From a virus: a DNA stretch of 59,644 nt. Position 1 is the stretch's first letter; every line of letters begins with the position of its first letter. The stretch is taken from IMG/VR virus record IMGVR_UViG_3300045988_078497, positions 1-59,644 of that record. One strand, given 5' to 3'. Of the stretch, positions 3,795-57,353 are shown piece by piece. Under the pieces are notes generated by a model that was not told the DNA's origin, ran no database searches, and worked only from the letters and a program-made list of their open reading frames with translations. The position numbers and the translations under genes were made by a program.

Positions 3795-3804
3795 ACTCAA
3801 TCTC

Positions 3805-4581
3805 CTATTCTGCCTGCATGAATGGTGGCAATGTGCTGTCTGCCTTTTTTTCGGTTGCTTCTGCGGCTGTTGTGTCAACTACATCTGCTTTATATTCCGC
3901 AAATTCAACGCTGTTTGCATTTTCTGAGATGTCGTTCTGTACCTGTTCTTGTAATTCATCCATAGAAGAATACTCTTTAAAATCGTTGTCCTGCATTTCT
4001 TCTCTTGTGTACAATCCCATCGTCAGTTCCGGGCAATTAAGGCTTGAGAAGAATGATGCAGCTCTGTATCTAAGCATAAGTTGTGGCATTGTTTTCCACT
4101 TGCTACCGTTTTTGCCAAGCCAACCCTCCGCTTTTGCCATATCCATGTCAACGGTCATTCCCTCTACTTTTCTGCCGTTTTTCGTAGTCCAGGCAAGGCA
4201 AGAGTACGGCTTCCCAGAGTTGTCTTTCTTTTCCTCGAACTGCAATTCCATGTCGAATTTTCCAGAATTATTAATTGCTGCAATTAGAAATTTTGAACTC
4301 CATGACGGTCTACCTTGAATCACATAAAGATTCTGCATAACCATCAAAGGACTTACTTTAAGTCTCTGTGCCTGTTCAATGGCGATCAAACAGTTTGCAT
4401 CATTTTTCTGAAATGTGGATGGAACAATCGTTGAACTTGAAAGTGCTTTCGCCATCTGCATCGCCATGATAAAATTGTCTGATGTTCCGAATATGCCAAG
4501 GCTGTAATCGGTTACTTTGTTATTGTGTGCTGCTACTTCTTTTTTTTCTTCATTTACTTCTACTGCTGTGTTCTCTGCCAT
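3805..4581 (-). CDS. recT: RecT-family single-strand annealing recombinase
   Basis: IAIEQAQRLKVSPLMVMQNLYVIQGRPSWSSKFLIAAIN resembles the RecT core. Confidence 0.75.
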   Translation of the reverse strand: MAENTAVEVNEEKKEVAAHNNKVTDYSLGIFGTSDNFIMAMQMAKALSSSTIVPSTFQKNDANCLIAIEQAQRLKVSPLMVMQNLYVIQGRPSWSSKFLIAAINNSGKFDMELQFEEKKDNSGKPYSCLAWTTKNGRKVEGMTVDMDMAKAEGWLGKNGSKWKTMPQLMLRYRAASFFSSLNCPELTMGLYTREEMQDNDFKEYSSMDELQEQVQNDISENANSVEFAEYKADVVDTTAAEATEKKADSTLPPFMQAE

Positions 4582-5105
4582 TATTTCATACCTCCGATTG
4601 TGATGTTAATTAATAACTGAAATGCTTCATTTTCTGTAAATCCTGCATCAACAAAAGATTTATAAAGTCTGTATATTTCTTTTGCTGTATCATTAATGCT
4701 GTTATCTGCTTTTGGCTCTGAATTGGTTAATCTTTCAAATGCCAATCTGGCACCAATGTTGAAATCAAATTTATCTTCCGGATTACAACGTGCAATGGCT
4801 TTCTTTCCTGTCGATTTATCAAGTGCAATCACCTGTCTATCTTTTTTGTAAATAACGATGGTTTCTGGTGCTATCTTTTCAATATTAGCCTTGTCCACAT
4901 ATAAGCACTGTTTGCCAAAAAGATGCGTTCCATCAATATCCTTGTCGTACACAGTTCCATTACCGCCATCATGGAAGTCATCAAATTTTACTAAACAGTC
5001 AGTTTTATATTCGAATATGACGGTGCCAGGTTTACCCTTAATATCGTATGTTGTAAAAAAATCGTCTTTAACTTTCACTCTGTCTCCGATTTTAAATTTG
5101 CTCAT
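4581..5105 (-). CDS. Hypothetical protein (174 aa), start overlaps RT 3' end
   Basis: ATG 5105 preceded by AAGGAGG; MSKFKIGDRVKVKDD...; track version 4581..5237 has an implausible N-terminus inside the RT gene. Confidence 0.6.
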   Translation of the reverse strand: MSKFKIGDRVKVKDDFFTTYDIKGKPGTVIFEYKTDCLVKFDDFHDGGNGTVYDKDIDGTHLFGKQCLYVDKANIEKIAPETIVIYKKDRQVIALDKSTGKKAIARCNPEDKFDFNIGARLAFERLTNSEPKADNSINDTAKEIYRLYKSFVDAGFTENEAFQLLINITIGGMK

Positions 5106-6168
5106 GTTTGAGTACCTCCTTAACATATAAATCCATTGAATGACATAATTTAATGCAATTACCATGCATTGCATGATTTTTCCAAGCATTATATTTTTCA
5201 TAAAATTTTTTCTCTGACATTTTGTCAGAATTGACAAGTTTCGCCCAAACTCTAATCTTTTTTCGTATTCTTCTTTTGTTTACTCCATTCAATTTTCTTA
5301 TGTGTTTTCCGTCTTTTGTTATGTAATGATGAAAACCTGTAAATAACAGTCCGTTTTTAAATGGAATTATTTGTGTCTTACCGTTAAGCGATAAACAAAG
5401 GCTATTCACGAATTGTTTTATACATTCAAGACACCACTTTAAATATTCCTTATCGTGATGAATTAAATAGAAATCATCCATGTATCTTCCATAAAAATTT
5501 ATTCCAAGCTCTCCGGTCACAAAGTGATCTAATCCATTCAGAATCAGCAATGCGTATGCCTGTGCAGCTTGATTCCCTAGTGGAAGTCCAGGACCATTTG
5601 TGCTGTCAATCAGCAAATGGTTCAACCATTGCGTATAATCATCTGGGAAATAATAATCAACAATATCCTTTAAAATATCGTGATCTATTTGATAGAAAAA
5701 TTTTGTGATATCGCATTTTAAAATCCAACCATCAATTCCATGTTGATTATAAAAATCCAACATTTGCTCTTTTAAACAATCAATTCCAAAATGTGTACCT
5801 TTTCCTATCTGCCCGGCATAATTAGTTCGAATAAACTCACTTTCCAATCTCGGATGCAATACATTGTCGCATAAGCAATGCTGTACTACTTTATCTTTGA
5901 ACGAACAGGATTTAATCACTCTTTCTTTAGGCTCATATACCTTAAATTCATTGTACGGATTCATCCGGTAAGTCTGATTTTCAAGCTGCTCTTTCAAAAT
6001 GTGTAATCCCTCAAGGTTCATTATTTGAAATTTAGCACTGCTGCCATTAAATCCTTTGCCTGCTTTAGCTTTCTTATAAGCTCTATACAGGTTTTCAAAA
6101 TCACATATAACATCTTTATCCATTGTAAAAAATCCTTTGTATTTATCCTTTTCGGAATGGTCATGCAC
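5092..6168 (-). CDS. DGR reverse transcriptase
   Basis: FYGRYMDDFYLIH (YMDD), LPLGNQAAQAYA motif-4-like region, adjacent TR; alternative start at MDKDVICDFENLYRAY (6123). Confidence 0.9.
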   Translation of the reverse strand: MHDHSEKDKYKGFFTMDKDVICDFENLYRAYKKAKAGKGFNGSSAKFQIMNLEGLHILKEQLENQTYRMNPYNEFKVYEPKERVIKSCSFKDKVVQHCLCDNVLHPRLESEFIRTNYAGQIGKGTHFGIDCLKEQMLDFYNQHGIDGWILKCDITKFFYQIDHDILKDIVDYYFPDDYTQWLNHLLIDSTNGPGLPLGNQAAQAYALLILNGLDHFVTGELGINFYGRYMDDFYLIHHDKEYLKWCLECIKQFVNSLCLSLNGKTQIIPFKNGLLFTGFHHYITKDGKHIRKLNGVNKRRIRKKIRVWAKLVNSDKMSEKKFYEKYNAWKNHAMHGNCIKLCHSMDLYVKEVLKHEQI

Positions 6169-6221
6169 TTTTTTGTATCTTTTTCTGATTTCGGCTTATT
6201 GCCTACTCTTACTGTCTGTGT

Positions 6222-6296
6222 GATACAGAATGGGCGAACACCGTTGTTGTTGTTACAGTTGTTGTTGTTGATATTGCCGGACGGAGAAACAACGGT
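6222..6296 (-). repeat. DGR template repeat (TR), non-coding, 8 AAC + AAT/ATC/ACC codon-equivalents
   Basis: Coding-strand ACCGTTGTTTCTCCGTCCGGCAATATCAACAACAACAACTGTAACAACAACAACGGTGTTCGCCCATTCTGTATC; matches VR1/VR2 except at A positions and the 3' IMH* end. Confidence 0.9.
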
Positions 6297-6320
6297 TTAT
6301 ACAGTACATAACCAGTAAAA

Positions 6321-6692
6321 TTATCTGCTTTTATCTTTCGTTCTCCAAGCAATCGCCATATGCTTGATATCCGAAACCATTTTTGACCAATATTCCATAC
6401 TTCTTGTGTTGATAATATTCAGTTTCATTGATAACTCAATGTAAAACAGAAGTTCATCACAGTGAGTTATGGCTTTAGTCTGTAATTCTGACCGCTCTCT
6501 CTTGTAATACTTCAAATCGGTTCGATTTGCTTCATACAGATATTCATAGATTTCAAGTGCATTATTCTGCATTTTGTCTACCAGTGAAAATCTGTATTTC
6601 TTTGGATATCTATTGCAATTTGAAGTTACACGCAATGTATGTTCTGCCAGATCTTTTGCTTTCAAAATTACTTTTAAGTCTGATTCGGCCAT
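6321..6692 (-). CDS. avd: Accessory variability determinant (Avd), four-helix-bundle protein
   Basis: 123 aa basic helical protein (..RYPKKYRFSLVDKMQNNALEIYEYLYEAN..) located between VR and TR, the canonical DGR position. Confidence 0.8.
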   Translation of the reverse strand: MAESDLKVILKAKDLAEHTLRVTSNCNRYPKKYRFSLVDKMQNNALEIYEYLYEANRTDLKYYKRERSELQTKAITHCDELLFYIELSMKLNIINTRSMEYWSKMVSDIKHMAIAWRTKDKSR

Positions 6693-6696
6693 TTAC

Positions 6697-7293
6697 TTAT
6701 TCCTCTGATTCAAAGATTGAAGAGGAAAAGATACAAACCGGGCGAACACCGTTGAAGTCGTTACAGATGTAGCTGCCGATAAGGCCGGACGGAGAAACAA
6801 CGGCGACTGTCGATTTATAATTATTGCAAGGTGTGCTCCACGGTGTAATGAGCCACCACCATTCATCAGTATTCGGAATGAATTTTCTGTATTTTCGGTA
6901 TTCGTCAACCGTCAAAAGAGATACAAAATCATCTGTTTCCCCATATTCTTCCTGTCCATCAAGAGACAACAGGTCTCTTTTAAAAGCAACAATATTATCC
7001 TCACCAATCTCTTTGGAAACCTTTTTATAGAACTCTGTGTGGAGATAACTTCTCAAACTACTTTTTTTCCAGTCACTTGAGTTTTCATCAAACTTTTTAT
7101 TTCCCAATGAGCCACCAATACACATATATCCGGCATCCGTAATATCAAGGATTTTCCAGTTTACATCTGCAAGTTCAAATTCATCCCCGATTTTCAATCC
7201 TTTCGGAACATGTATCACACCTAGCTTTTCCTCAAGTGCTTTAACTCTGTCGAACAATTCTGAAATGTCATTTCCTGTAATTTTCTTTCCCAT
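6697..7293 (-). CDS. DGR variable target protein 1 (198 aa), C-terminal CLec-type VR (WWWL..PW....VVSPSG....GVRPV)
   Basis: VR1 at its 3' end; C-terminus DEWWWLITPWSTPCNNYKSTVAVVSPSGLIGSYICNDFNGVRPVCIF. Confidence 0.88.
   Translation of the reverse strand: MGKKITGNDISELFDRVKALEEKLGVIHVPKGLKIGDEFELADVNWKILDITDAGYMCIGGSLGNKKFDENSSDWKKSSLRSYLHTEFYKKVSKEIGEDNIVAFKRDLLSLDGQEEYGETDDFVSLLTVDEYRKYRKFIPNTDEWWWLITPWSTPCNNYKSTVAVVSPSGLIGSYICNDFNGVRPVCIFSSSIFESEE
6700..6727 (-). promoter_or_regulatory. Hairpin immediately 3' of VR1/IMH (7-bp outer stem ttcctct/agaggaa, inner tcaa/ttga)
   Basis: Read from sequence; position corresponds to the target-recognition hairpin described for the Bordetella phage DGR. 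Confidence 0.5.
6730..6804 (-). repeat. DGR variable repeat VR1
   Basis: 75 nt collinear with TR; 11 substitutions, all at TR adenines, plus 3 mismatches in the 3' IMH end (VR GGTTTGTATC vs TR ATTCTGTATC). Confidence 0.9.
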
Positions 7294-7295
7294 AA

Positions 7296-7904
7296 TTATT
7301 TATCCCCTTTCGATACAAAGATATTAGATTTCAAGATACAAACCGGGCGAACACCGCGGCCGAAGTCGTCGTAACAGTCGTAGTAGTAGATAAAGCCGGA
7401 CGGAGAAACAACGGACATGCTGTATTTCGCTCCTCTATCATCAGCAGACCACGGTGTGCATGTCCACCACCAATCATCAAGGCTTTTGTCGGCAAGCAAA
7501 TTGTTGTATTCTCTTGCTTCATCAAACGTAATAGGTCTTACTTTGCAACTGCAATTACAAAATTCGTGTTGCATATCAACGGATGTAAGTTCAACTTCGT
7601 GTTCCACAAGGTTTTGGGAACCGACTTCGGATTCAATAATCGGTTGAATTTCGTTTTCAATAACTTTTTTTAAATTCGACTTGTTGTAATCTCGTGTGTT
7701 TTCATCAAATACAACATCTTCTTTCATGAAGCCTTTTGAGATCACGGTTGTCGTATCGCAATCATGCTTCAGAACAAAAAAATCATGTTCTCCGATTTTA
7801 AACACATCACCCGGATTTAGTTCTGAAAGTCTGACCTTTTTTGCGTTTCCTGATTCTTCTAACTGTTTAACCAATTTTCTTGCAAGTTCTAATTCTTTAC
7901 TCAT
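7296..7904 (-). CDS. DGR variable target protein 2 (202 aa), paralog of target 1
   Basis: C-terminus DDWWWTCTPWSADDRGAKYSMSVVSPSGFIYYYDCYDDFGRGVRPVCIL carrying VR2. Confidence 0.85.
   Translation of the reverse strand: MSKELELARKLVKQLEESGNAKKVRLSELNPGDVFKIGEHDFFVLKHDCDTTTVISKGFMKEDVVFDENTRDYNKSNLKKVIENEIQPIIESEVGSQNLVEHEVELTSVDMQHEFCNCSCKVRPITFDEAREYNNLLADKSLDDWWWTCTPWSADDRGAKYSMSVVSPSGFIYYYDCYDDFGRGVRPVCILKSNIFVSKGDK
7335..7415 (-). repeat. DGR variable repeat VR2 (81 nt; 6-nt insertion relative to TR)
   Basis: Same flanks as VR1 (ccggacggagaaacaacgg / gggcgaacaccg, identical IMH); substitutions only at TR adenines, plus extra GGCCGC (Gly-Arg) before GGTGTTCGCCC. Confidence 0.85.
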
Positions 7905-41123: not shown

Positions 41124-41520
41124 GTGTGCATTTCTGCAAGAGCAGCATTTTTTTAATTCAAGTGGGATTCTGCCACCAACACTCTATCCGGTCGCTATCC
41201 GGAATATTTGAATGTAAGGACTTGCACCTTATTAGAACCCATCTTCCAAGAATCGAACTTGTATTTCTTGTATATCGAAATGTCACCATACATCTGGAAT
41301 CGAACCAGACTAAGCACTTTGCCATTCAACACCTACGGTTGCCACCAACGTCTGACATTCATCTACCAGCATTACCACTTGCAAGGCTTTGAACATTGGT
41401 CAATCTGAATGGGTGGTGTAGCGTCTCCAACCCATATCGGAATTTCTTTTGTCGCTACATTTGATACAATTCCATTCGGACTTCGTATTTTTACCGCTTA
41501 CGGCTTCTACCGTAAGTTAG

Positions 41521-45589: not shown

Positions 45590-45636
45590 ATAATAACATA
45601 TGTGCGTTATAAAGTCAATGAATATATGTGCGTTAT
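45590..45636. repeat. 47-bp direct repeat, copy 1 (contains two TATGTGCGTTAT cores)
   Basis: ataataacatatgtgcgttataaagtcaatgaatatatgtgcgttat identical to 45850-45896. Confidence 0.9.
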
Positions 45637-45818
45637 TTTAAAATTTTTTCGAGTTCATCCAATTTTGCAATCACTGTATCACGTATGAATGCGGAATTAG
45701 ATTTTTCCAACCCCAACGCCTCGATGCGTTCTTTCGTTCCTTTTGGGAATACAATATTCAATCTATAGTTGTTTTTCTCATATCTTCTTATAGCTTCTTT
45801 CTGCGCTTCTGTTGCCAT
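45633..45818 (-). CDS. Ribbon-helix-helix (Arc/CopG-type) regulator
   Basis: MATEAQKEAIRRYEKNNYRLNIVFPKGTKERIEALGLEKSNSAFIRDTVIAKLDE: beta-strand then two helices typical of RHH. Confidence 0.65.
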   Translation of the reverse strand: MATEAQKEAIRRYEKNNYRLNIVFPKGTKERIEALGLEKSNSAFIRDTVIAKLDELEKILK

Positions 45819-45849: not shown

Positions 45850-45979
45850 ATAATAACATATGTGCGTTATAAAGTCAATGAATATATGTGCGTTATACGA
45901 TTTACACAAGAAAATCACGTTTATATGTGCGTTATTTTGTGTATTATTCCGTCTGTACTTTTGCGTATATGTGCGTTAT
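45850..45979. promoter_or_regulatory. 47-bp repeat copy 2 plus two further TATGTGCGTTAT cores: putative operator array in the divergent promoter region
   Basis: Cores at 45859, 45885, 45924, 45968 (plus 45599 and 45625 in copy 1). Confidence 0.7.
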
Positions 45980-46029: not shown

Positions 46030-46524
46030 ATGACAGAAACAAAAATTTATTTAAACACATGGGGCGCATATAACAACGGTTGCATCGGTTATGGTTGGAT
46101 GACCGCAGACGAAGCAGAAGAATTTATCGAAGAGGACCCGGAACGCGACGGCGGCGAGTGGTTCATCGCTGACATCGATAACTATTTGGGGGTTGAATTT
46201 CGCAACCTCAATTATAGCAACGTCGATGACGTTATAGAAACAATAAAGGAACTTGAGGGCATGGAAGAATACGAACGCAACGAGGTAGTAGCATTAATGG
46301 AGTATTTGAGCACAGAGGACGTTCAAGAAGCCATTGAAAAGCATGATAGCCATATTTTTTATGAGGACATTGAAAGTTATCATGACAGTTGCGACGAGCT
46401 TATAGAGCAGGAATTACAAAGCTCTGCTTCTATCGTGATGAGATACTTCGATTATGACGCATATCATCGTGATTGCGATTTTGACGTTTACGAAGCATCA
46501 AACGGCATTGTGATAGCCTCATAA
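46030..46524 (+). CDS. ardA: ArdA-like antirestriction protein (164 aa, very acidic)
   Basis: MTETKIYLNTWGAYNNGCIGYGWMTADEAEEFIEEDPERDGGEWFIAD resembles the ArdA N-terminal pattern; GCAGGAGGAAAAG RBS. Confidence 0.6.
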   Translation: MTETKIYLNTWGAYNNGCIGYGWMTADEAEEFIEEDPERDGGEWFIADIDNYLGVEFRNLNYSNVDDVIETIKELEGMEEYERNEVVALMEYLSTEDVQEAIEKHDSHIFYEDIESYHDSCDELIEQELQSSASIVMRYFDYDAYHRDCDFDVYEASNGIVIAS

Positions 46525-46605
46525 ATAGCCGAAACGCCCGCCAGGGCGTCCACCGCGGGACGGTCTCCCGGTACTGACGATGGCAGACCAGAAAGGGAAA
46601 TAGAC

Positions 46606-46874: not shown

Positions 46875-47135
46875 ATGAGATCTTATATTTTGCACTTAAA
46901 AGGCGAAAACAAGCTTGTGACGGAAGCTGAAGCAATCCAGGAAGCAGAAAGACAGGAGAAAGCCGGAACGGTTCCGCGCTATGCATGGCGGGATTATAAA
47001 ACAGGCGAACCGATCACGCCGCCCGGCTGGCTTGTATGGTCAACGTATGCGGACGGTTGCGGGGTCGTTTATCGCAGATCAGACGGGAAAATGGTACTTG
47101 TCACAGGTTGGCAATGTGAATTTGTTTGCAATTAG
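46875..47135 (+). CDS. Hypothetical protein (86 aa)
   Basis: ORF track; GGAGGATATGAAAAATG context. Confidence 0.5.
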   Translation: MRSYILHLKGENKLVTEAEAIQEAERQEKAGTVPRYAWRDYKTGEPITPPGWLVWSTYADGCGVVYRRSDGKMVLVTGWQCEFVCN

Positions 47136-47157
47136 ACGGATTTATTCCGGCTTTTTG
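47135..47157 (+). terminator. Weak rho-independent terminator ending the plus-strand island
   Basis: gacgga-tttat-tccggc then TTTTT. Confidence 0.5.
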
Positions 47158-47973
47158 TCGTGCCGTCAATGGTTATTTTGCCCGGTTCGATTCCGGCGGG
47201 CGGTCTTTCTGGCATCCCGTGGCTATATGCTGCACGGTGAATTTTTGGCGCGTTTATGCGTTCCGCAGCTGTCAGCGGTAAAAAATGGCGGTTCGTGTGC
47301 GTTTCTGCATCCGGCACACGGTTAGAAAAAAAGATCAGATGTAGCGCAGCGGCGACCGCGTCAGAATCGCACTGGCTCAAGACAAGCAATGCCGGTTATA
47401 ATTGTGCTTGCGTTTTGGTGCTGGCGTGCCACCAAATAAAAACAGATCACGCCCGGAACGCTGACCGCATCCAGCAATAAAAAGAAAAAAATAACCGTTA
47501 CATTTTACAAATTAAAAAAATAACGGTTTATTTGTAGAACCTTGAAAAATAAATAAAAGGGGCTTTATTAAGTGCGCCCGGAAGCATGGGGGAGCGATGC
47601 GCACGAAAAAATATATGTATACAATATACTTTTTTGCATTTTATTGACTGCGCCATTTTTATTAGTGTATGCTATGGGCGACTAGATACGTATTGCAACG
47701 GTGGCAGCGCGCGACATGCGCGCCAGGTCGCTAAATTATCAGAATTGTTTCAAGTTGTCAGAAAATAACGAATCCGTTTTAAAATCCGGTCAAAATCTGG
47801 TCGAAATTTTGAAATTTGCCGATCTGGTTTTTCAATCTGAAAATCGGTACCCCGGGGGGTATCAAAATCAACCAGGACATTCCGCGGCACTTGTGATTTT
47901 GAAAAAAATTTCCGCGAAAATCTCGCAAAAATCCAACCGAAAAATTGAAATTTGCAATTTTGAAATCCTTGCT

Positions 47974-47997
47974 CAAAATTAAGACCCAGGGGGGCTT
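47974..47997 (-). terminator. Possible terminator after the small HTH gene
   Basis: aagaccc-agg-ggggctt imperfect stem, AATTTTG on the minus strand. Confidence 0.35.
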
Positions 47998-48151
47998 AAA
48001 ATTTTGCTAGACCATTTTTGACAGATTCCATCGTAAACAAAATTGCTTTGCTTGTGTATGTGCTTACACTCAGTTCTTCCAGTAGCCGCTCCCTTGTCAT
48101 TCCCGGATTTGTCTTGTGTATATATTCCAATAGTTCATCAATTTTATTCAT
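47996..48151 (-). CDS. Small HTH-like protein (51 aa)
   Basis: TAATG coupling to ImmA-like stop; MNKIDELLEYIHKTNPGMTRERLLEELSVSTYTSKAILFTMESVKNGLAKF. Confidence 0.45.
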   Translation of the reverse strand: MNKIDELLEYIHKTNPGMTRERLLEELSVSTYTSKAILFTMESVKNGLAKF

Positions 48152-48471: not shown

Positions 48472-48530
48472 AAGTACCTCCAAAAAAAGAAACCACCAAC
48501 CGAATACTGGTTAATGGTTTCTAATTATTG

Positions 48531-53144: not shown

Positions 53145-53295
53145 CATGGCAATACCTCCAGAATATTTTTTTGAGAAATTGGCAAAAAGCACCCCTTATA
53201 TTATATGCTCAGACATAAAAAAAGATGCCTAACGGCACCAACTTTTTTCAACTGTATTAAGGCTATTTTCTTATGCTATTTTTTACACCAATTTT

Positions 53296-53344
53296 GTACC
53301 AATTTTTGTACCAATTTTTAAAAACGTACCAATTTTGTACCAAT
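53296..53344. promoter_or_regulatory. attP arm: four GTACCAAT repeats (putative integrase arm-type sites)
   Basis: Copies at 53296, 53308, 53326, 53337; a variant ACACCAAT lies just upstream. Confidence 0.7.
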
Positions 53345-53558
53345 CAAAAGTTGAATTTAAACATTTTTGTAGGTTTTTGTGAAGCTGTTAAATTTGCTTT
53401 ATTTCCAGTATTTATGCTGTTTGTAGACTTATGTAGACTTTTAAACAGAAAGTCGTTTTTGCGTTATTTCATAAGGAAATGATCTGTATTATTGCTTCTC
53501 TTATGTGCTTCAAACCATTGATTTTACTGGGTTTCGTGCTATTTAGTTATATAGTTTT

Positions 53559-53577
53559 GTACCAATTCCGTACCAAT
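53559..53577. promoter_or_regulatory. attP arm: two more GTACCAAT repeats abutting the integrase stop
   Basis: Copies at 53559 and 53570. Confidence 0.65.
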
Positions 53578-54704
53578 TACACCACTTTTAGGTAATTTTC
53601 CAGCTTCAAAATTTCCTTTTCGTTTGCTTCTTCTGTTGTATGAACATAAAGGTTCATTGTTATTGTTATGCTAGAATGTCCGAGGATGGTCTGTAATGTT
53701 TTTGGTCTTATTCCTGCTTCAATACACCTAGTAGCATAAGTGTGTCTCAGAGAATGCATCGAAAAAACATCCACATTATATTTTTTACAATAAGATTTCA
53801 ATAACGTATTAAGTGAACTTCTAGTATTCAAAACACCATGCGTATTCAAAAAAATATTATTTTTATATTTTAAACTAATTACTTTTAATTTTGCATTTTT
53901 TTCTTTTTGTGCATTAAGCAGTTTCTTTGCTTCTTCTGTCAGTGGAACAGTGCGTATACTTGTTTTCGATTTTGGCGTTCCGACTTTTGTTTTTTTGTCT
54001 GTGTCTTGAAATAATGTTTTGTTTACGCATATTTTATTCTTTTCAAAATCAACATCATCCCACGTCAGCGCAAGAATTTCACTGACTCTCATACCGGTTT
54101 GTAACGCAAATGCAAAAAAATTATAATTTGCAGTATTTTTCGATCTCTCAAGAAAATCTTTCTGCTCCTGCACCGTCAAAAACCTTATTTTCACTTCCTC
54201 TTTCACCGGAATTTTTACATTCCTTGTTACCGGATTGAATGATATAAAGGAGTTTTCAACGGCGGATTCAAAAAAACCATGCATAACTTCACGAACTCCT
54301 TGTATAGTGTTCTTTTTCATCCCGTTTTCCATCATTACTTCAAACACTTCGCTACAATGAATCGGTTTGACATCTTTAATCAACATATCCCCCATTACCG
54401 GCTTTATGTGTCTTAACCATCTTGTTAAATTTGCACTCTGCGTGTTTGGCTTCCAGAACGGTTTTTTTAATTTTTCGTACCAGTAATTAAACCACGATTC
54501 AACAGTGGGATTATCTCCACGCAGAACATTACCATGCTCTTTTTCAAACTGCATGTCTGCCACCCACTTCCTACAATCCTGTAGTTTTTTAAAATTTTTA
54601 GAAATCCTTTTTCCATTGCGATCAGTTACTCTACCCATGTAAAATCCATCGGTTCTTTGAGAAATACCTATTCCAAGTTCTTTTCCTTTTAGGCTTTTTC
54701 CCAT
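53577..54704 (-). CDS. int: Tyrosine integrase
   Basis: C-terminal catalytic region ...MRVSEILALTWDDVDF...HSLRHTYATRCIEAGI...LGHSSITITMNLYVH (R..HxxR..Y); start at ATG 54704 or GTG 54713. Confidence 0.9.
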   Translation of the reverse strand: MGKSLKGKELGIGISQRTDGFYMGRVTDRNGKRISKNFKKLQDCRKWVADMQFEKEHGNVLRGDNPTVESWFNYWYEKLKKPFWKPNTQSANLTRWLRHIKPVMGDMLIKDVKPIHCSEVFEVMMENGMKKNTIQGVREVMHGFFESAVENSFISFNPVTRNVKIPVKEEVKIRFLTVQEQKDFLERSKNTANYNFFAFALQTGMRVSEILALTWDDVDFEKNKICVNKTLFQDTDKKTKVGTPKSKTSIRTVPLTEEAKKLLNAQKEKNAKLKVISLKYKNNIFLNTHGVLNTRSSLNTLLKSYCKKYNVDVFSMHSLRHTYATRCIEAGIRPKTLQTILGHSSITITMNLYVHTTEEANEKEILKLENYLKVV

Positions 54705-54778
54705 TATTCGCACCCCTTTCTTTAAAAGAAAAAGCCTTAATACAGTAATTTCATATTACTACATAAGGCTTTAAAAGT

Positions 54779-56541: not shown

Positions 56542-57353
56542 TCTATTGGTTTGTTGTAATCCGTTTTCTTTTGTCTGCCATTGTAATCATTTTTCAAATC
56601 ATACACATCAGTCCAACAGTGATCGGTTGACTGGTTCAGAATCTTTACCGCCAAGTCATTGTCCCCGCCAGACAAAGTTTGAATCTTGTTCATCATCCTG
56701 GTTAATGCCTGCTTGGTTGCCAACGGCTTTTTGATTTTGATTCGCATTGATAAAAATTCTCTGAATGCAGTTTCCAGAAGTTCATCATCCGGGTAATACG
56801 GATCGCCTTTCTTTCTAGGTTCGTAAGAACCTCTTTCTTTGTTATTCTTTTCATTCTCTACATTCTTTACATTCTTATCATTCTTTAATTCTTTACATTC
56901 TTGTTTGTGTTCCGTCACTGTATCCGTTGGTGTTTCGTCACTGTATCCGTCACTGTATCCGCTGGTGTGTTCGCCAGTGTATCCGTTAGTGTATCCATTA
57001 CTGTGTCCGTTAGTGTTTTCATAAAACTGGTAAACCACATAATTTACAATGGTTAGGAGTGTTCTACTTTTGTTGCTTTCTTTTTTCAACATCCCATCTT
57101 GTTCAAGTAACTTCAAGAACCTGTAAACCCTGTTTGTGCTCCAATTCCAATTGTCAGATAATTTTCTTACAGATGTCAAAATTTGACCTTTTCCAACGGT
57201 AATTAGTTCGCCATCAAACAATATTTTTTTATCGGAATGATTAGCTGAAAGAAGTAAATCAACCCATGCTGATCTCATATCAAACGGTTCATTTCTTCTC
57301 CATATCCAGCACTCTTGCAACTGTCTGTGCAATTTTATCCACCCTTTTTCCAC
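56526..57353 (-). CDS. Replisome organizer/DnaD-like replication initiation protein
   Basis: MEKGWIKLHRQLQECWIWRRNEPFDMRSAWVDLLLSANH winged-helix N-domain; repeat-encoded GYTNGYTGEHTSGYSDGYSD linker; DnaD-like C-terminus. Confidence 0.75.
   Translation of the reverse strand: MEKGWIKLHRQLQECWIWRRNEPFDMRSAWVDLLLSANHSDKKILFDGELITVGKGQILTSVRKLSDNWNWSTNRVYRFLKLLEQDGMLKKESNKSRTLLTIVNYVVYQFYENTNGHSNGYTNGYTGEHTSGYSDGYSDETPTDTVTEHKQECKELKNDKNVKNVENEKNNKERGSYEPRKKGDPYYPDDELLETAFREFLSMRIKIKKPLATKQALTRMMNKIQTLSGGDNDLAVKILNQSTDHCWTDVYDLKNDYNGRQKKTDYNKPIDWSGV
56914..57010. repeat. Iteron array (six ~12-nt CA(C/G)TGT(A/G)TCC(G/A)T units) inside the replisome-organizer gene: candidate origin
   Basis: gtcactgtatccgt x3 (56914, 56937, 56949), then agtgtatccgtt, agtgtatccatt, actgtgtccgtt. 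Confidence 0.7.

Follow-up and report, generated by a model that had tools for sequence, protein, structure and literature searches.

Structures resembling tRNA serve as processing signals within longer transcripts in several systems, such as the mascRNA of MALAT1 and the tRNA-miRNA units of gammaherpesviruses, and the 3′ ends of plant viruses (e.g. TMV) place a tRNA-like structure next to an upstream pseudoknot domain. The phage SP82 stabilizer in B. subtilis and the flaviviral xrRNAs are 5′ stabilizers or exonuclease-resistant RNAs. Furthermore, sar of P22 and c4 of P1 exert convergent or antisense control over antirepressor operons, and ColE1 RNA II (with its rG6/dC6 contact) and the ori transcript of phage c2 exemplify transcription-primed origins. 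In M. smegmatis, the tRNA-like module of YrlA has an acceptor stem of 7 bp; RNase P cuts it and CCA is added to it (PMC4201824). In prophages, type II hammerheads flank single genes or short blocks, including ardA (Perreault et al., 2011; PMC3088659), and it has been proposed that they cut long transcripts into gene-length RNAs (PMC3088659).

Here we have analysed a gene-free stretch in a gut-phage genome (the window: all 59,644 nucleotides of IMG/VR record IMGVR_UViG_3300045988_078497). As in hammerhead-punctuated prophage operons, an ArdA-like gene is followed by a hammerhead; unlike the ribozymes of such operons, the element described below is not a hammerhead and has no Rfam ribozyme match, and any punctuation would proceed through recruited host tRNA-processing enzymes and not by self-cleavage. 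In the literature, we found nothing specific on a tRNA-like element associated with phage hammerheads. We lean, by a little, towards reading the locus as a plus-strand non-coding RNA unit at 47137-47535, made of a tRNA-like element and a pseudoknotted RNA, with a separate zone in the right half.

Results

Setting, composition and conservation

The operon is an early, anti-restriction one, with an ArdA-like gene, a type II hammerhead ribozyme and small ORFs, and the RNA unit stands at its end. The hammerhead (Hammerhead_II, 46527-46592) lies outside the gene-free region, approximately 600 nt upstream of the tRNA-like element; it also occurs in relatives and is the only Rfam match. It was likewise the only part matched in a BLAST search against INPHARED phages. 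The Rfam search that the first-pass annotation had proposed yielded no family for the region, at gathering or at permissive thresholds, and nor did ARAGORN; the models of Rfam 15 (hammerhead, twister, pistol, hatchet, HDV-like, ROOL, GOLLD etc.) had no match within 47120-47560 at E<=10, and on positions 4380-4830 of the relative L021 Rfam returned nothing but a weak tRNA match.

The first-pass annotation had described an ORF-free region trapped between convergent terminators, with a GC-rich part reaching to about 47740. The region is ORF-free, but it is a mosaic of four things and not one feature, and on its right side we found no convincing minus-strand terminator that would close it. The GC-richness is real at 47136-47470 (52.8% vs 38.5% for the genome, a level reached by only 0.04% of 335-nt windows); however, it ends near 47470, and 47471-47700 has a GC content of 33.5%. 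Among close relatives the region is kept at 87.5-93.4% identity (L032 matching only in part), and in a second clade at about 65%, where the flanking protein is 62-70% identical.

None of the ORFs listed for the region is convincing, as they are short, mutually overlapping, without a Pfam match and without codon periodicity. The variable sites among close relatives number 19/21/23 in 47136-47480 and 23/27/30 in a 93-aa ORF of the AT-rich half, and indels of 1-2 nt separate these relatives in the region; frameshifting indels rule out the 93-aa ORF. A frameshift-corrected ORF spanning the region, which the annotation had considered, is contradicted by the indels, the lack of periodicity and the lack of Pfam matches. 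We give almost no credence to the related view that the GC-rich half is a decayed or frameshift-hidden protein gene: it is GC-rich by the standards of this genome, it is overlapped by ORFs of 74-114 aa and a true gene remnant adjoins it at 47550-47640, but this view is already contradicted by the absence of a Pfam match, by substitutions without codon periodicity, by indels of 1, 2, 7, 9 and 31 nt between clades and by compensatory base-pair changes, which are not expected in coding sequence.

A tRNA-like minihelix

The GC-rich half opens with the following features.

47137-47157, plus strand: terminator-like hairpin CGGA-TTTAT-TCCG with a T-run, directly after the stop codon of an 86-aa gene
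47161-47205, plus strand: anticodon-arm-less tRNA-like minihelix (alignments, covariation)
47161-47167, plus strand: acceptor 5′ strand of the minihelix, (T)GCCGTC
47168-47180, plus strand: GG-containing linker, AATGGTTATTTTG
47181-47185, plus strand: T stem, CCCGG
47186-47192, plus strand: T loop, TTCGATT
47193-47197, plus strand: T stem, CCGGC, followed by G at 47198
47199-47204, plus strand: acceptor 3′ strand, GGCGGT, followed by C and a U-rich trailer

The leading hairpin has a weak stem in the window (-5.5 kcal/mol, z = -1.25); its counterparts in relatives have stronger, covarying stems (GCCGGA/TCCGGC, GCTGGGGA/TCCCCGGC and GGGTGGA/TCCACCC). A consensus terminator scan lists neither this hairpin, with its weak stem here, nor the AT-rich stem at 47491-47535. 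Mosaic breakpoints in L126 and L131 fall at 47123-47132, and the hairpin marks the 5′ edge of a mobile unit.

The T-arm-like CCGGTTCGATTCCGG seen earlier at 47182-47196 is indeed present, and the T arm (GGTTCGATTCC) is invariant in most copies of the minihelix. In most copies an acceptor stem of 6-8 bp and a T stem of 4-6 bp add up to 12-13 bp, and, with some 12 bp of acceptor and T stem and a T loop of the UUCRANU type, the element has the make-up of a tRNA ‘top-half’ minihelix. The copy in the window is imperfect (a T stem of 4 bp plus a mismatch or bulge), is not the MFE structure of its own sequence (z = +0.40) and does not encode CCA. Pairing is nevertheless maintained across relatives: in alignment A3, which like A2 and A4 was registered by hand to the proposed helices, 94.8% of cells are paired vs 70.8% in shuffles, and the covariation score is 0.586 vs 0.184, a value that none of 500 shuffles reaches. 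At least six acceptor-stem sequences occur among relatives, and six that differ are all paired (GCCGTC/GGCGGT, GCTGCTG/CGGTGGC, AACAACC/GGTTGTT, GGCAAGC/GCTTGCT, AACCGC/GCGGTT and AGCTAAT/ATTAGCT); the T stem covaries too. In close relatives the minihelix, with a single variable site, is the least variable 40 nt of the region. It is intercistronic in L039 and flanks the 86-aa gene on both sides in L007.

This is not a full tRNA. The element has no anticodon arm, it drew no ARAGORN call at 47161-47205 and no match to the Rfam tRNA model RF00005 even at E<=10, and the L021 homologue, which does best on that model among relatives, reaches 21 bits, short of the gathering score (29). The ‘D-arm-like’ GTAGCGCAGCGG (47341-47352) of the first-pass annotation is separated from the T arm by 150 nt, belongs to a poorly conserved linker and falls outside the tRNA-like element. 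Similarly, the suggestion of a host-derived tRNA-locus remnant does not fit, as a complementary 5′ acceptor strand belonging to the T arm lies 13 nt upstream of it and the element recurs with differing, covarying acceptor stems, sometimes twice per operon, between cistrons.

Like mascRNA, the tRNA-miRNA units and YrlA, the element combines a T arm, canonical in its T loop, with an acceptor stem stacked on it, and would lie inside a longer transcript. However, it differs from them in the absence of an anticodon arm, in a D arm reduced to a 9-28-nt linker with at most a 3-4-bp hairpin, and in its place between phage cistrons, sometimes in two copies; its cleavage is putative. Unlike YrlA, it has no adjacent Ro60/Rsr gene: of the neighbouring ORFs (62, 86 and 51 aa), none has a Pfam match at the gathering threshold or a TROVE-domain match. 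A bacterial Y RNA of the YrlA kind was rejected on the missing TROVE domain in these three neighbours and the absence of an Rfam Y-RNA match.

Some copies in clade 4 have the T loop TGCAAGT instead of TTCGATT, and clade 3 lacks the minihelix altogether. Thus, tRNA mimicry is not obligatory for the RNA that follows.

A predicted pseudoknotted plus-strand RNA

The GC-rich RNA at 47216-47453 (plus strand) comprises the hairpins P1, P2 and P4 and three H-type pseudoknots (A, B and C).

47216-47320, plus strand: 5′ domain of the structured RNA (alignments, pair counts)
47216-47221/47233-47238, plus strand: P1
47248-47251/47258-47261, plus strand: P2
47263-47266/47275-47278, plus strand: pseudoknot A stem, CCGC/GCGG
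47268-47274/47286-47292, plus strand: pseudoknot A loop GCTGTCA pairing with TGGCGGT, the linker between being TAAAAAA
47294-47300/47314-47320, plus strand: P4
47321-47371, plus strand: poorly conserved linker with GTAGCGCAGCGG (47341-47352) and a small GCGG-CGA-CCGC hairpin
47372-47453, plus strand: conserved core of two consecutive H-type pseudoknots (pattern matches, covariation)
47372-47376/47391-47395, plus strand: pseudoknot B stem 1, CTGGC/GCCGG
47383-47388/47405-47410, plus strand: pseudoknot B stem 2, CAAGCA/TGCTTG
47415-47420/47430-47435, plus strand: pseudoknot C stem 1, TTGGTG/CACCAA
47423-47428/47448-47453, plus strand: pseudoknot C stem 2, GGCGTG/CACGCC

Two of these stems had been noted before, and both carry compensatory changes in relatives: GTGTGC/GCACAC, which is P4 (47294-47320) and has five of six pairs changed on both sides, and TTGGTG/CACCAA (47415-47435). 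Variation in pseudoknot A is confined to wobble-to-Watson-Crick changes. A narrow sequence pattern for it, searched in IMG/VR, metagenomes and GTDB genomes, was found in only three clades after several chance matches had been discarded; relatives of the L021 type have, as read by eye from the sequence, an analogous pseudoknot of other sequence. The linker at 47321-47371 gave no alignment between clades and no consistent pairing.

A degenerate 24-position pattern for the core matches 100 IMG/VR stretches, which fall into six clades or so and thus represent a modest number of independent events. In pseudoknots B and C the hairpin loop pairs downstream and both stems covary, as an H-type pseudoknot should. 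The purely MAFFT-built alignment A5 has 98.1% of cells paired and eight pairs changed on both sides vs 2.3 in shuffles (0/500 shuffles), and A6 has 97.5% paired. In the curated alignment A4, 95% of cells are paired and 18 of the 23 pairs are changed on both sides; N-padding of the hand alignments for MAFFT only partly worked and shifted clade 3 in A2 and A4, so that the counts from these two are conservative. Strands from the same sequence pair over 17.4 of 18 bp, as against 10.1 when strands are swapped between clades. Furthermore, G-U pairs far outnumber A-C mismatches (106 to 14, 33 to 9 and 31 to 3), which places the constraint on a single strand, the plus strand. The single strands of the core (TCAAGA, TTATAATTG and ATAAAAACAGAT) are conserved, and from these invariant loops and covarying stems we infer that the last two pseudoknots are the functional core.

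Could these helices be chance hairpins in GC-rich DNA? For 47155-47470, the MFE fold does not beat shuffled sequences (plus strand, z = +1.54; minus strand, z = +0.44), and the promoter match described below is not above chance. However, pairing falls from 95-98% in register to 26-42% when one strand is slid, a model built without clades c2 and c3 (R1) finds both, and by our own rough estimate the 24-position pattern would have less than one chance match against the 100 found in IMG/VR. Chance is contradicted because of the covariation, and we regard it as the least credible account of all. RNAalifold on raw MAFFT alignments recovered the structure only in part, because of the pseudoknots and misregistered loops.

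Two well-known RNAs combine similar parts. As in tmRNA, the T arm and acceptor stem of the locus lack an accompanying anticodon arm, the D loop has a GG-containing analogue, and H-type pseudoknots occur several times within one RNA. However, in tmRNA the body separates the D analogue from the T arm, whereas the tRNA-like part of the phage element is contiguous and its body follows, an order that no circular permutation of tmRNA can produce; the element also lacks a G3-U70 pair, CCA and a conserved tag reading frame. A reading of the window against L013 gave no conserved short ORF after pseudoknot A, and tmRNA was rejected on this point, on its topology and on the absence of any ARAGORN or Rfam tmRNA match. 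Like TMV-type 3′ ends, the viral RNA has a tRNA mimic beside three consecutive pseudoknots; unlike them, the order is reversed (tRNA-like part first), the virus is a DNA phage, the element is internal to the transcript and it has no sign of aminoacylation identity elements. The likeness to the SP82 stabilizer and xrRNAs, namely that a compact structure at a putative processed 5′ end could protect the RNA downstream, is a purely functional analogy.

That last analogy leads to a possibility we consider improbable, that the double pseudoknot works as a new ribozyme that cleaves itself, or as an xrRNA-like fold that blocks exonucleases, within a ribozyme-rich processing system. These operons carry type II hammerheads, and other ribozyme classes have been discovered beside hammerheads. 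Invariant junction nucleotides and covarying helices would suit such a fold, as would its place directly after a putative RNase P/Z cut, which would expose a 5′-monophosphate end to 5′-exonuclease. However, no Rfam ribozyme resembles it and no cleavage site can be deduced, which leaves the idea to analogy.

A terminator-like hairpin, a gene remnant and a putative promoter

Between the core and the AT-rich half lie four further features.

47491-47535, plus strand: terminator-like hairpin ATAACCGTTA ... TAACGGTTTAT with a U-rich tail
47550-47640, plus strand: small-gene remnant, with the RBS-like AAAAGGGGC, the start region AAGCATG and the 3′ end TGTATACAATATAC around a 132-nt deletion
47644-47673, plus strand: sigma-70-like promoter TTGACT-18-TATGCT, reading rightwards into the AT-rich half
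47707-47723, plus strand: GC hairpin GCGCGC-GACAT-GCGCGC, about 30-40 nt 3′ of the putative transcription start

The stem AACCGTTA/TAACGGTT (47491-47531), reported earlier, is present and shows a compensatory change in relatives: in the L144/L030/L138 group the stem reads AGCCGTTG/CAACGGTT, where G-C replaces A-U and a G-U pair forms on the plus strand. The hairpin, with its AT-rich stem and 20-nt loop (-9.4 kcal/mol, z = -1.93), is the probable 3′ end of the RNA. Beyond it, six relatives (L144, L030, L138, L149, L113 and L141) have an intact ORF for a 59-aa CxxC protein, with the RBS AACAGGAGG and no Pfam family. The window and ten others share the 132-nt deletion, and their start codons vary. 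The GTGCGC/GCGCAC ‘stem’ (47572-47604) of the first-pass annotation is a by-product of this deletion and is not conserved.

This arrangement bears on whether the pseudoknotted domain is instead a cis-acting leader, riboswitch-like or protein-binding, that controls the next ORF through the 47491-47535 terminator. Ligand-binding RNAs typically have covarying stems around invariant loops; relatives whose 59-aa gene is intact have, in order, the domain, the terminator-like hairpin, an RBS and the 59-aa ORF; and in clade 4 an ORF starts about 60 nt after the end of the domain. However, the downstream ORF of one clade is not related to that of another (59-aa CxxC, 90 aa and 160 aa), which offers no functional clue; clade 4 has no terminator between domain and ORF; and eleven genomes keep the domain despite deletion of the ORF, so that a leader in the window would be an orphan. 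Nor did we find a conserved antiterminator pairing, the sole candidate (47168-47179 with 47488-47499) being absent in clade 2. We regard a cis-acting leader as unlikely. A T-box or antiterminator was rejected because clade 2 does not keep the 12-nt complementarity of the minihelix linker to the terminator arm.

The promoter-like pair TTGACT-18-TATGCT is present, but its match alone (9/12 consensus positions) is not above chance (4 sites vs 4.8 expected). It is kept, as TTGACT-18-TATGCT or TATACT, in all 17 close relatives while its flanks vary, and L039 has TTGACA and then TG-n-TATAAT at the equivalent place. The proposal that the structured RNA has its own promoter does not hold for this site, which is downstream of the RNA and points away from it into the AT-rich half. 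We found no recognizable promoter for the structured RNA, which follows the 86-aa gene behind a weak terminator-like hairpin; its transcription would thus depend on read-through. The inner hairpin GCGCGC-GACAT-GCGCGC is conserved in relatives, the sole variant, GCGCGT, retaining a plus-strand G-U pair, but the enclosing GCGAC/GTCGC pairing is not conserved. The local fold at 47676-47735 has -23.1 kcal/mol (z = -1.11).

An AT-rich repeat zone

47770-48005, no strand assigned: AT-rich repeat element, with AAAATC(Y)GGTC-type 11-mers at 47781, 47792, 47840, 47864, 47917 and 47928
47854 and 47989: G6 motifs, GGGGGGTATCAAAAT and GGGGGGCTTAAAATTTT respectively

The six AAAATC and three TTTTGAAA units and the near-palindrome GGTACCCCGGGGGGTATC listed earlier are all present, and AAAATC is enriched (six copies vs 0.24 expected). 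Their supposed helical phasing is weak, with AAAATC spacings of 11, 48, 24, 53 and 11 nt. The curvature check did find A-tract periodicity, ranking among the highest 11% of genome windows for AAA/TTT and the highest 4% for AAAA, but it is weak. Bent DNA or a protein-binding site is possible for the AT-rich half only. In distant relatives, the convergent operon likewise has the G6-TAT-CAAA motif and the repeats at its 3′ end.

In this half a putative promoter leads into non-coding repeats that face an operon 3′ end near an antirepressor gene, as with P22 sar and P1 c4, and the would-be transcript has G6 runs, as in ColE1 RNA II. Unlike in P22 sar, P1 c4, ColE1 and c2, transcript, target pairing and origin activity are hypothetical here, and a canonical iteron origin is located elsewhere in the genome.

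We consider it highly improbable that the region works as a DNA site, be it for replication origin, for partition or for secondary attachment based on a host tRNA fragment; for the left half this is already contradicted. The T-arm sequence resembles attP cores of tRNA-gene-integrating phages, and the right half contains, 3′ of a putative promoter, direct repeats of an iteron-like kind together with A-tracts and G6 runs, a layout that recalls R-loop or transcription-activated origins. However, the integrated relative L127 joins host DNA at ~53486, beside the integrase, with the region intact inside the prophage (an exact-match lookup of the integrase gave no match). The primary origin is likewise elsewhere, at a 12-bp iteron array inside the DnaD/O-like initiator gene (56899-57017), from which the repeats of the AT-rich half differ in sequence. 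The T arm's own 5′ acceptor strand and several copies, the wobble asymmetry that indicates single-strand constraint and the weak A-tract phasing also speak against a DNA site.

Discussion

A tRNA look-alike and a knot-rich RNA with compensating mutations in about 100 phage contigs very probably make this an uncatalogued, functional non-coding RNA. The candidate of a structured non-coding RNA in the first-pass annotation has therefore been borne out to the extent that the GC-rich half is a conserved, covarying plus-strand RNA.

How might such a unit work? The tRNA look-alike keeps only a ‘top half’, in which the acceptor stem would stack on the T arm over ~12 bp, with a short GG-containing linker. 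If transcribed, it could be cut by host RNase P on its 5′ side and by RNase Z on its U-rich 3′ side, and would so punctuate the transcript in parallel with the hammerhead upstream. Cutting would release a downstream RNA of ~330 nt with hairpins, three H-type pseudoknots, A-rich linkers and a terminator-like end. We favour a role for this presumably stable product as a compact, nuclease-resistant RNA that would act in trans, binding protein or serving as a decoy in early infection, or alternatively as a protective 5′ leader for the following ORF. The right half has the deleted small gene and a conserved putative promoter that reads into the AT-rich array of 11-nt repeats with two G6 motifs, where it would meet the 3′ end of the convergent genes for the 110-aa ImmA-like and 51-aa winged-helix-like proteins; most simply, and this is a guess, the right half would be a regulatory, protein-binding or antisense-transcription zone.

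A broader proposal, tentative and in our judgement rather doubtful, is that the locus belongs to a so far uncatalogued RNA class that temperate phages of gut Lachnospiraceae carry widely. Here the tRNA mimic would recruit RNase P and RNase Z to cut the early anti-defence transcript, interchangeably with hammerheads, and free a double-pseudoknot RNA with a new activity (self-cleavage, a block to 5′-exonuclease, or sequestration of a host or defence protein).

This work raises several points of wider interest. The core, with covarying stems and invariant loops in 100 IMG/VR stretches, has no Rfam family, and covarying stems around invariant loops are the signature that earlier led to new riboswitches and ribozymes. 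For annotators, a recurrent ‘empty’ gap of 0.4-0.9 kb in gut-phage genomes gains an explanation. Finally, hammerheads flanking the genes of prophage operons have been on record since 2011 but still lack a clear purpose, and this locus adds a second, putative and host-enzyme-dependent ‘punctuation mark’. If true, a second kind of punctuation would support the view that early anti-restriction transcripts are deliberately cut into defined pieces.

Results

Genomic setting of the ORF-free region

The window contig is circularly closed by a 77-nt terminal repeat (about 59,567 bp) and represents a temperate, siphovirus-like phage, with PHROG matches to a DnaD/O-like initiator, a helicase loader, RecT, terminase, portal and a reverse transcriptase of the kind known from diversity-generating retroelements. 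A Lachnospiraceae MAG harbours a closely related prophage (L120). A short plus-strand module borders the ORF-free region (47160-47975) on the left, and minus-strand genes have their 3' ends on its right.

Features of the window
5092-6168 (-): reverse transcriptase gene (PHROG, 1e-97)
6222-6295: template-like repeat, A-rich on the minus strand
6730-6803 and 7341-7414: two variable copies of the repeat, inside ORFs 6697-7293 and 7296-7904
46030-46524 (+): ArdA-like anti-restriction gene, opening the plus-strand module upstream of the region
46527-46592 (+): type II hammerhead ribozyme (Rfam, 54.6 bits), immediately downstream of the ArdA-like gene
to 47135 (+): 62-aa ORF, then an 86-aa ORF ending at 47135, the rest of the module
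47161-47205 (+): tRNA-like minihelix, GCCGUC - 13 nt with UGG - CCCGG UUCGAUU CCGG(C) - G - GGCGGU
minus strand, convergent on the region: 51-aa ORF, 110-aa ImmA-like gene, antirepressor
~53150-53577: attP region, beside the integrase (L127, 9261)
53577-54713: tyrosine integrase (PHROG match)

Many related loci have hammerhead homologues on that same strand, and an operon may hold two of them. A strong intrinsic terminator at 48488-48522 (-; 14-bp stem plus T7) separates the antirepressor from the 110-aa ImmA-like gene, so the 110-aa and 51-aa genes may be transcribed together as a separate small unit. A 61-aa ribbon-helix-helix-like gene (45633-45818, -) is flanked by a perfect 47-nt direct repeat (45590-45636, 45850-45896); the two copies are probably operator/promoter copies at a divergent switch driving the ArdA module. 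A probable diversity-generating retroelement occupies 5092-7904 (-), and its variable copies differ from the template-like repeat mainly at the A positions of the latter.

The first-pass annotation had called the region ORF-free, and this was upheld: the ORFs of 47136-47995 are without exception short, overlap with others and lack Pfam matches. Among 17 distinct close relatives, codon periodicity is absent from variable sites and 1-2-nt indels are frequent. The GC-rich left part is real at 47136-47470 (52.8% versus 38.5% for the genome, and the GC-richest stretch of that size) but shorter than proposed, 47471-47700 being AT-rich (33.5%). The sequence motifs that had been listed were all recovered in place, or very nearly so. 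Rfam 15, even at E<=10, matched no family in the region, and ARAGORN made no call there.

A tRNA-like minihelix

The 3' flank of the T-arm-like sequence is complementary to a strand 13 nt upstream, and together they form a minihelix of acceptor stem and T arm in which the anticodon arm is absent. Relatives share this architecture with wholly different acceptor stems (GCUGCUG/CGGUGGC, AACAACC/GGUUGUU, GGCAAGC/GCUUGCU, AACCGC/GCGGUU, AGCUAAU/AUUAGCU); their T stems covary, and the linkers (9-28 nt) always contain GG and occasionally a 3-4-bp hairpin. Across 27 distinct copies, 94.8% of alignment cells are paired, versus 70.8% in shuffles and 43-57% in slid-register controls, and the covariation score is 0.586 versus 0.184 (0/500 shuffles as high). 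Acceptor and T stem together make 12-13 bp in most copies, the length of a tRNA top half. Copies are intercistronic in the related locus L039 and flank the 86-aa gene in another (L007); a U-rich trailer that lacks CCA follows them. In the clade (sequence group) to which the window belongs, no other 40 nt of the region vary as little as the minihelix. The window copy is itself imperfect, with a T-stem mismatch or bulge, and the proposed fold is not the MFE structure; Rfam's tRNA model never called the copies at the gathering score (best copy 21 bits versus 29). A host tRNA remnant or integration core, as previously suggested, would lack its own covarying 5' acceptor strand, which the minihelix possesses.

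Some clade-4 copies (L153, L160) carry a TGCAAGT loop instead of TTCGATT and keep both stems; therefore the canonical T-loop sequence is not universally required. At ~41245-41345 (-), the tRNA cluster contains two more T-loop hairpins, GTCTGG-TTCGATT-CCAGAT and CAAG-TTCGATT-CTTG, neither called as tRNA by ARAGORN or Rfam. For the former, an ACCGTA/TATGGT acceptor pairing is possible across a 23-nt linker, so it could represent a decayed tRNA or one more tRNA-like element.

A predicted pseudoknotted RNA

By BLAST, 47138-47460 is about 65% identical to a second clade (the L013 group), and the flanking protein is only 62-70% identical. A three-clade comparison yielded a model of the RNA at 47216-47453: hairpins P1 and P2, pseudoknot A (CCGC[GCUGUCA]GCGG-UAAAAAA-UGGCGGU), hairpin P4, a variable linker and two consecutive H-type pseudoknots, PK-B and PK-C (47372-47453). 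The register of several RNA alignments was set by eye or through a local best-pair search, and the clades are few; in the hand-registered alignment, 93.6% of cells are paired and 18/50 pairs show two-sided changes, against at most 4 in slid controls. An nhmmer match in L021 revealed a fourth clade, absent from the model design, in which PK-B and PK-C are present with novel sequences, and a degenerate pattern of the conserved single strands matched 100 IMG/VR stretches, adding two further clades.

PK-B and PK-C retain all their four stems in 6/6 clades; the first stem (S1) of PK-C, for example, reads UUGGUG/CACCAA, CUGGAC/GUCCAG, GUGUC/GACAC, UAGGUG/CACCUA, AAGGAG/CUCCUU and UGGGAG/CUCCCG. Strands of the same sequence form 17.4 of 18 bp, whereas exchanging strands between clades without a change of register leaves 10.1. 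A pure MAFFT alignment of this core is 98.1% paired, with two-sided changes in 8 pairs versus 2.3 in shuffles (0/500); the curated alignment is 95.0% paired, with such changes in 18/23 pairs and a score of 0.581 versus 0.171. Furthermore, a covariance model from which clades 2 and 3 were withheld detects both (35-43 and 22-25 bits) and gives an alignment that is 97.5% paired, with two-sided changes in 11/12 pairs; it found no match among the more distant relatives scanned. G-U pairs exceed A-C mismatches (106 versus 14, 33 versus 9, 31 versus 3), and therefore the RNA strand is the plus strand. The core loops UCAAGA, AUAAUYG and AUAAAAACAGAU are near-invariant. MFE z-scores of the whole RNA were not significant. 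On its 3' side the RNA is followed by a hairpin (47491-47531; z = -1.93; one compensatory change in relatives) and U-rich tail, where it probably ends. The earlier suggestion of a structured non-coding RNA is thus borne out by covarying, conserved plus-strand stems.

In clade 3 and L109 (L108 ~3800-3900 (-), L109, L137, L145) an extra 5' domain precedes the RNA, consisting of a long hairpin and an H-type pseudoknot (GCGGU..GCAAGG..ACCGC..CCUUGC), for which Rfam gave no match.

The decayed gene and the AT-rich half

In six relatives, 47550-47640 corresponds to an intact 59-aa CxxC ORF with a good RBS, so plus-strand expression continues past the RNA. A 132-nt internal deletion of this ORF is common to the window and ten others, whose former start codon is variable, and it gave rise to the proposed GTGCGC/GCGCAC stem as a by-product. 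The RNA was also wrongly credited with its own promoter: the promoter-like TTGACT-18-TATGCT overlaps the ORF's stop codon in relatives and would read through the GC hairpin at 47707-47723 into the AT-rich repeat array. This element (TATGCT or TATACT) is invariant in relatives with varying flanks, and its positional counterpart in L039 is TTGACA followed by TG-n-TATAAT. The GC hairpin is conserved, its sole variant retaining a plus-strand G-U pair.

The array comprises AAAAUC(Y)GGUC-like 11-mers and two G6 motifs (47854, 47989), which recur at the convergent-operon 3' end even in relatives otherwise dissimilar here. The AAAATC repeats are genuine (six versus 0.24 expected), but their helical spacing is only weak (11, 48, 24, 53 and 11 nt), as is that of the A-tracts. 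Candidate roles are a protein-binding array and antisense or convergent transcription against the ImmA-like and 51-aa (and antirepressor) genes. A secondary R-loop-type origin is disfavoured by the location of an iteron origin elsewhere in the window: about nine 12-bp iterons (TCCGTCACTGTA-like) lie at 56899-57017 inside the DnaD/O-like initiator gene, accompanied by TTTACATTCTT repeats (array region 56849-57017), and this array is likely to be the replication origin. The ORF-free region is therefore not the initiator-dependent origin, and no evidence for a primary origin was found in it.

Nor is the region an attachment site. It is intact inside the 99%-identical prophage L127, which meets host polC, infC-rpmI-rplT and Mn-catalase genes at window ~53486, beside the integrase; the host integration site adjoins the Mn-catalase gene, downstream of infC-rpmI-rplT. 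Repeats of the TTTTGTACCAATT type at 53274-53567 resemble arm-type sites.

Discussion

Genes flanked by type II hammerheads in prophage operons include ardA, and the ribozymes were suggested to cut long transcripts into gene-length RNAs (Perreault et al., PMC3088659). In a bacterial Y RNA, a tRNA-like module whose acceptor stem is 7 bp long was shown to be cut by RNase P and to acquire CCA (Chen et al., PMC4201824). Because of these precedents, we propose that the minihelix may act as a host-enzyme-dependent punctuation mark in hammerhead-bearing operons and, in the window, would release the following ~330-nt RNA. As to that RNA, the downstream ORFs differ, which argues against a gene-specific riboswitch. 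It seems to be explained most economically as a stable RNA acting in trans or as a protective leader; the interesting outlier would be a fold with new catalytic or nuclease-blocking activity. Within Rfam 15 and the searchable literature, no description of the minihelix plus double-pseudoknot RNA was found. The locus is real and unusual, and both elements belong among known kinds, tRNA mimics and phage ncRNAs.
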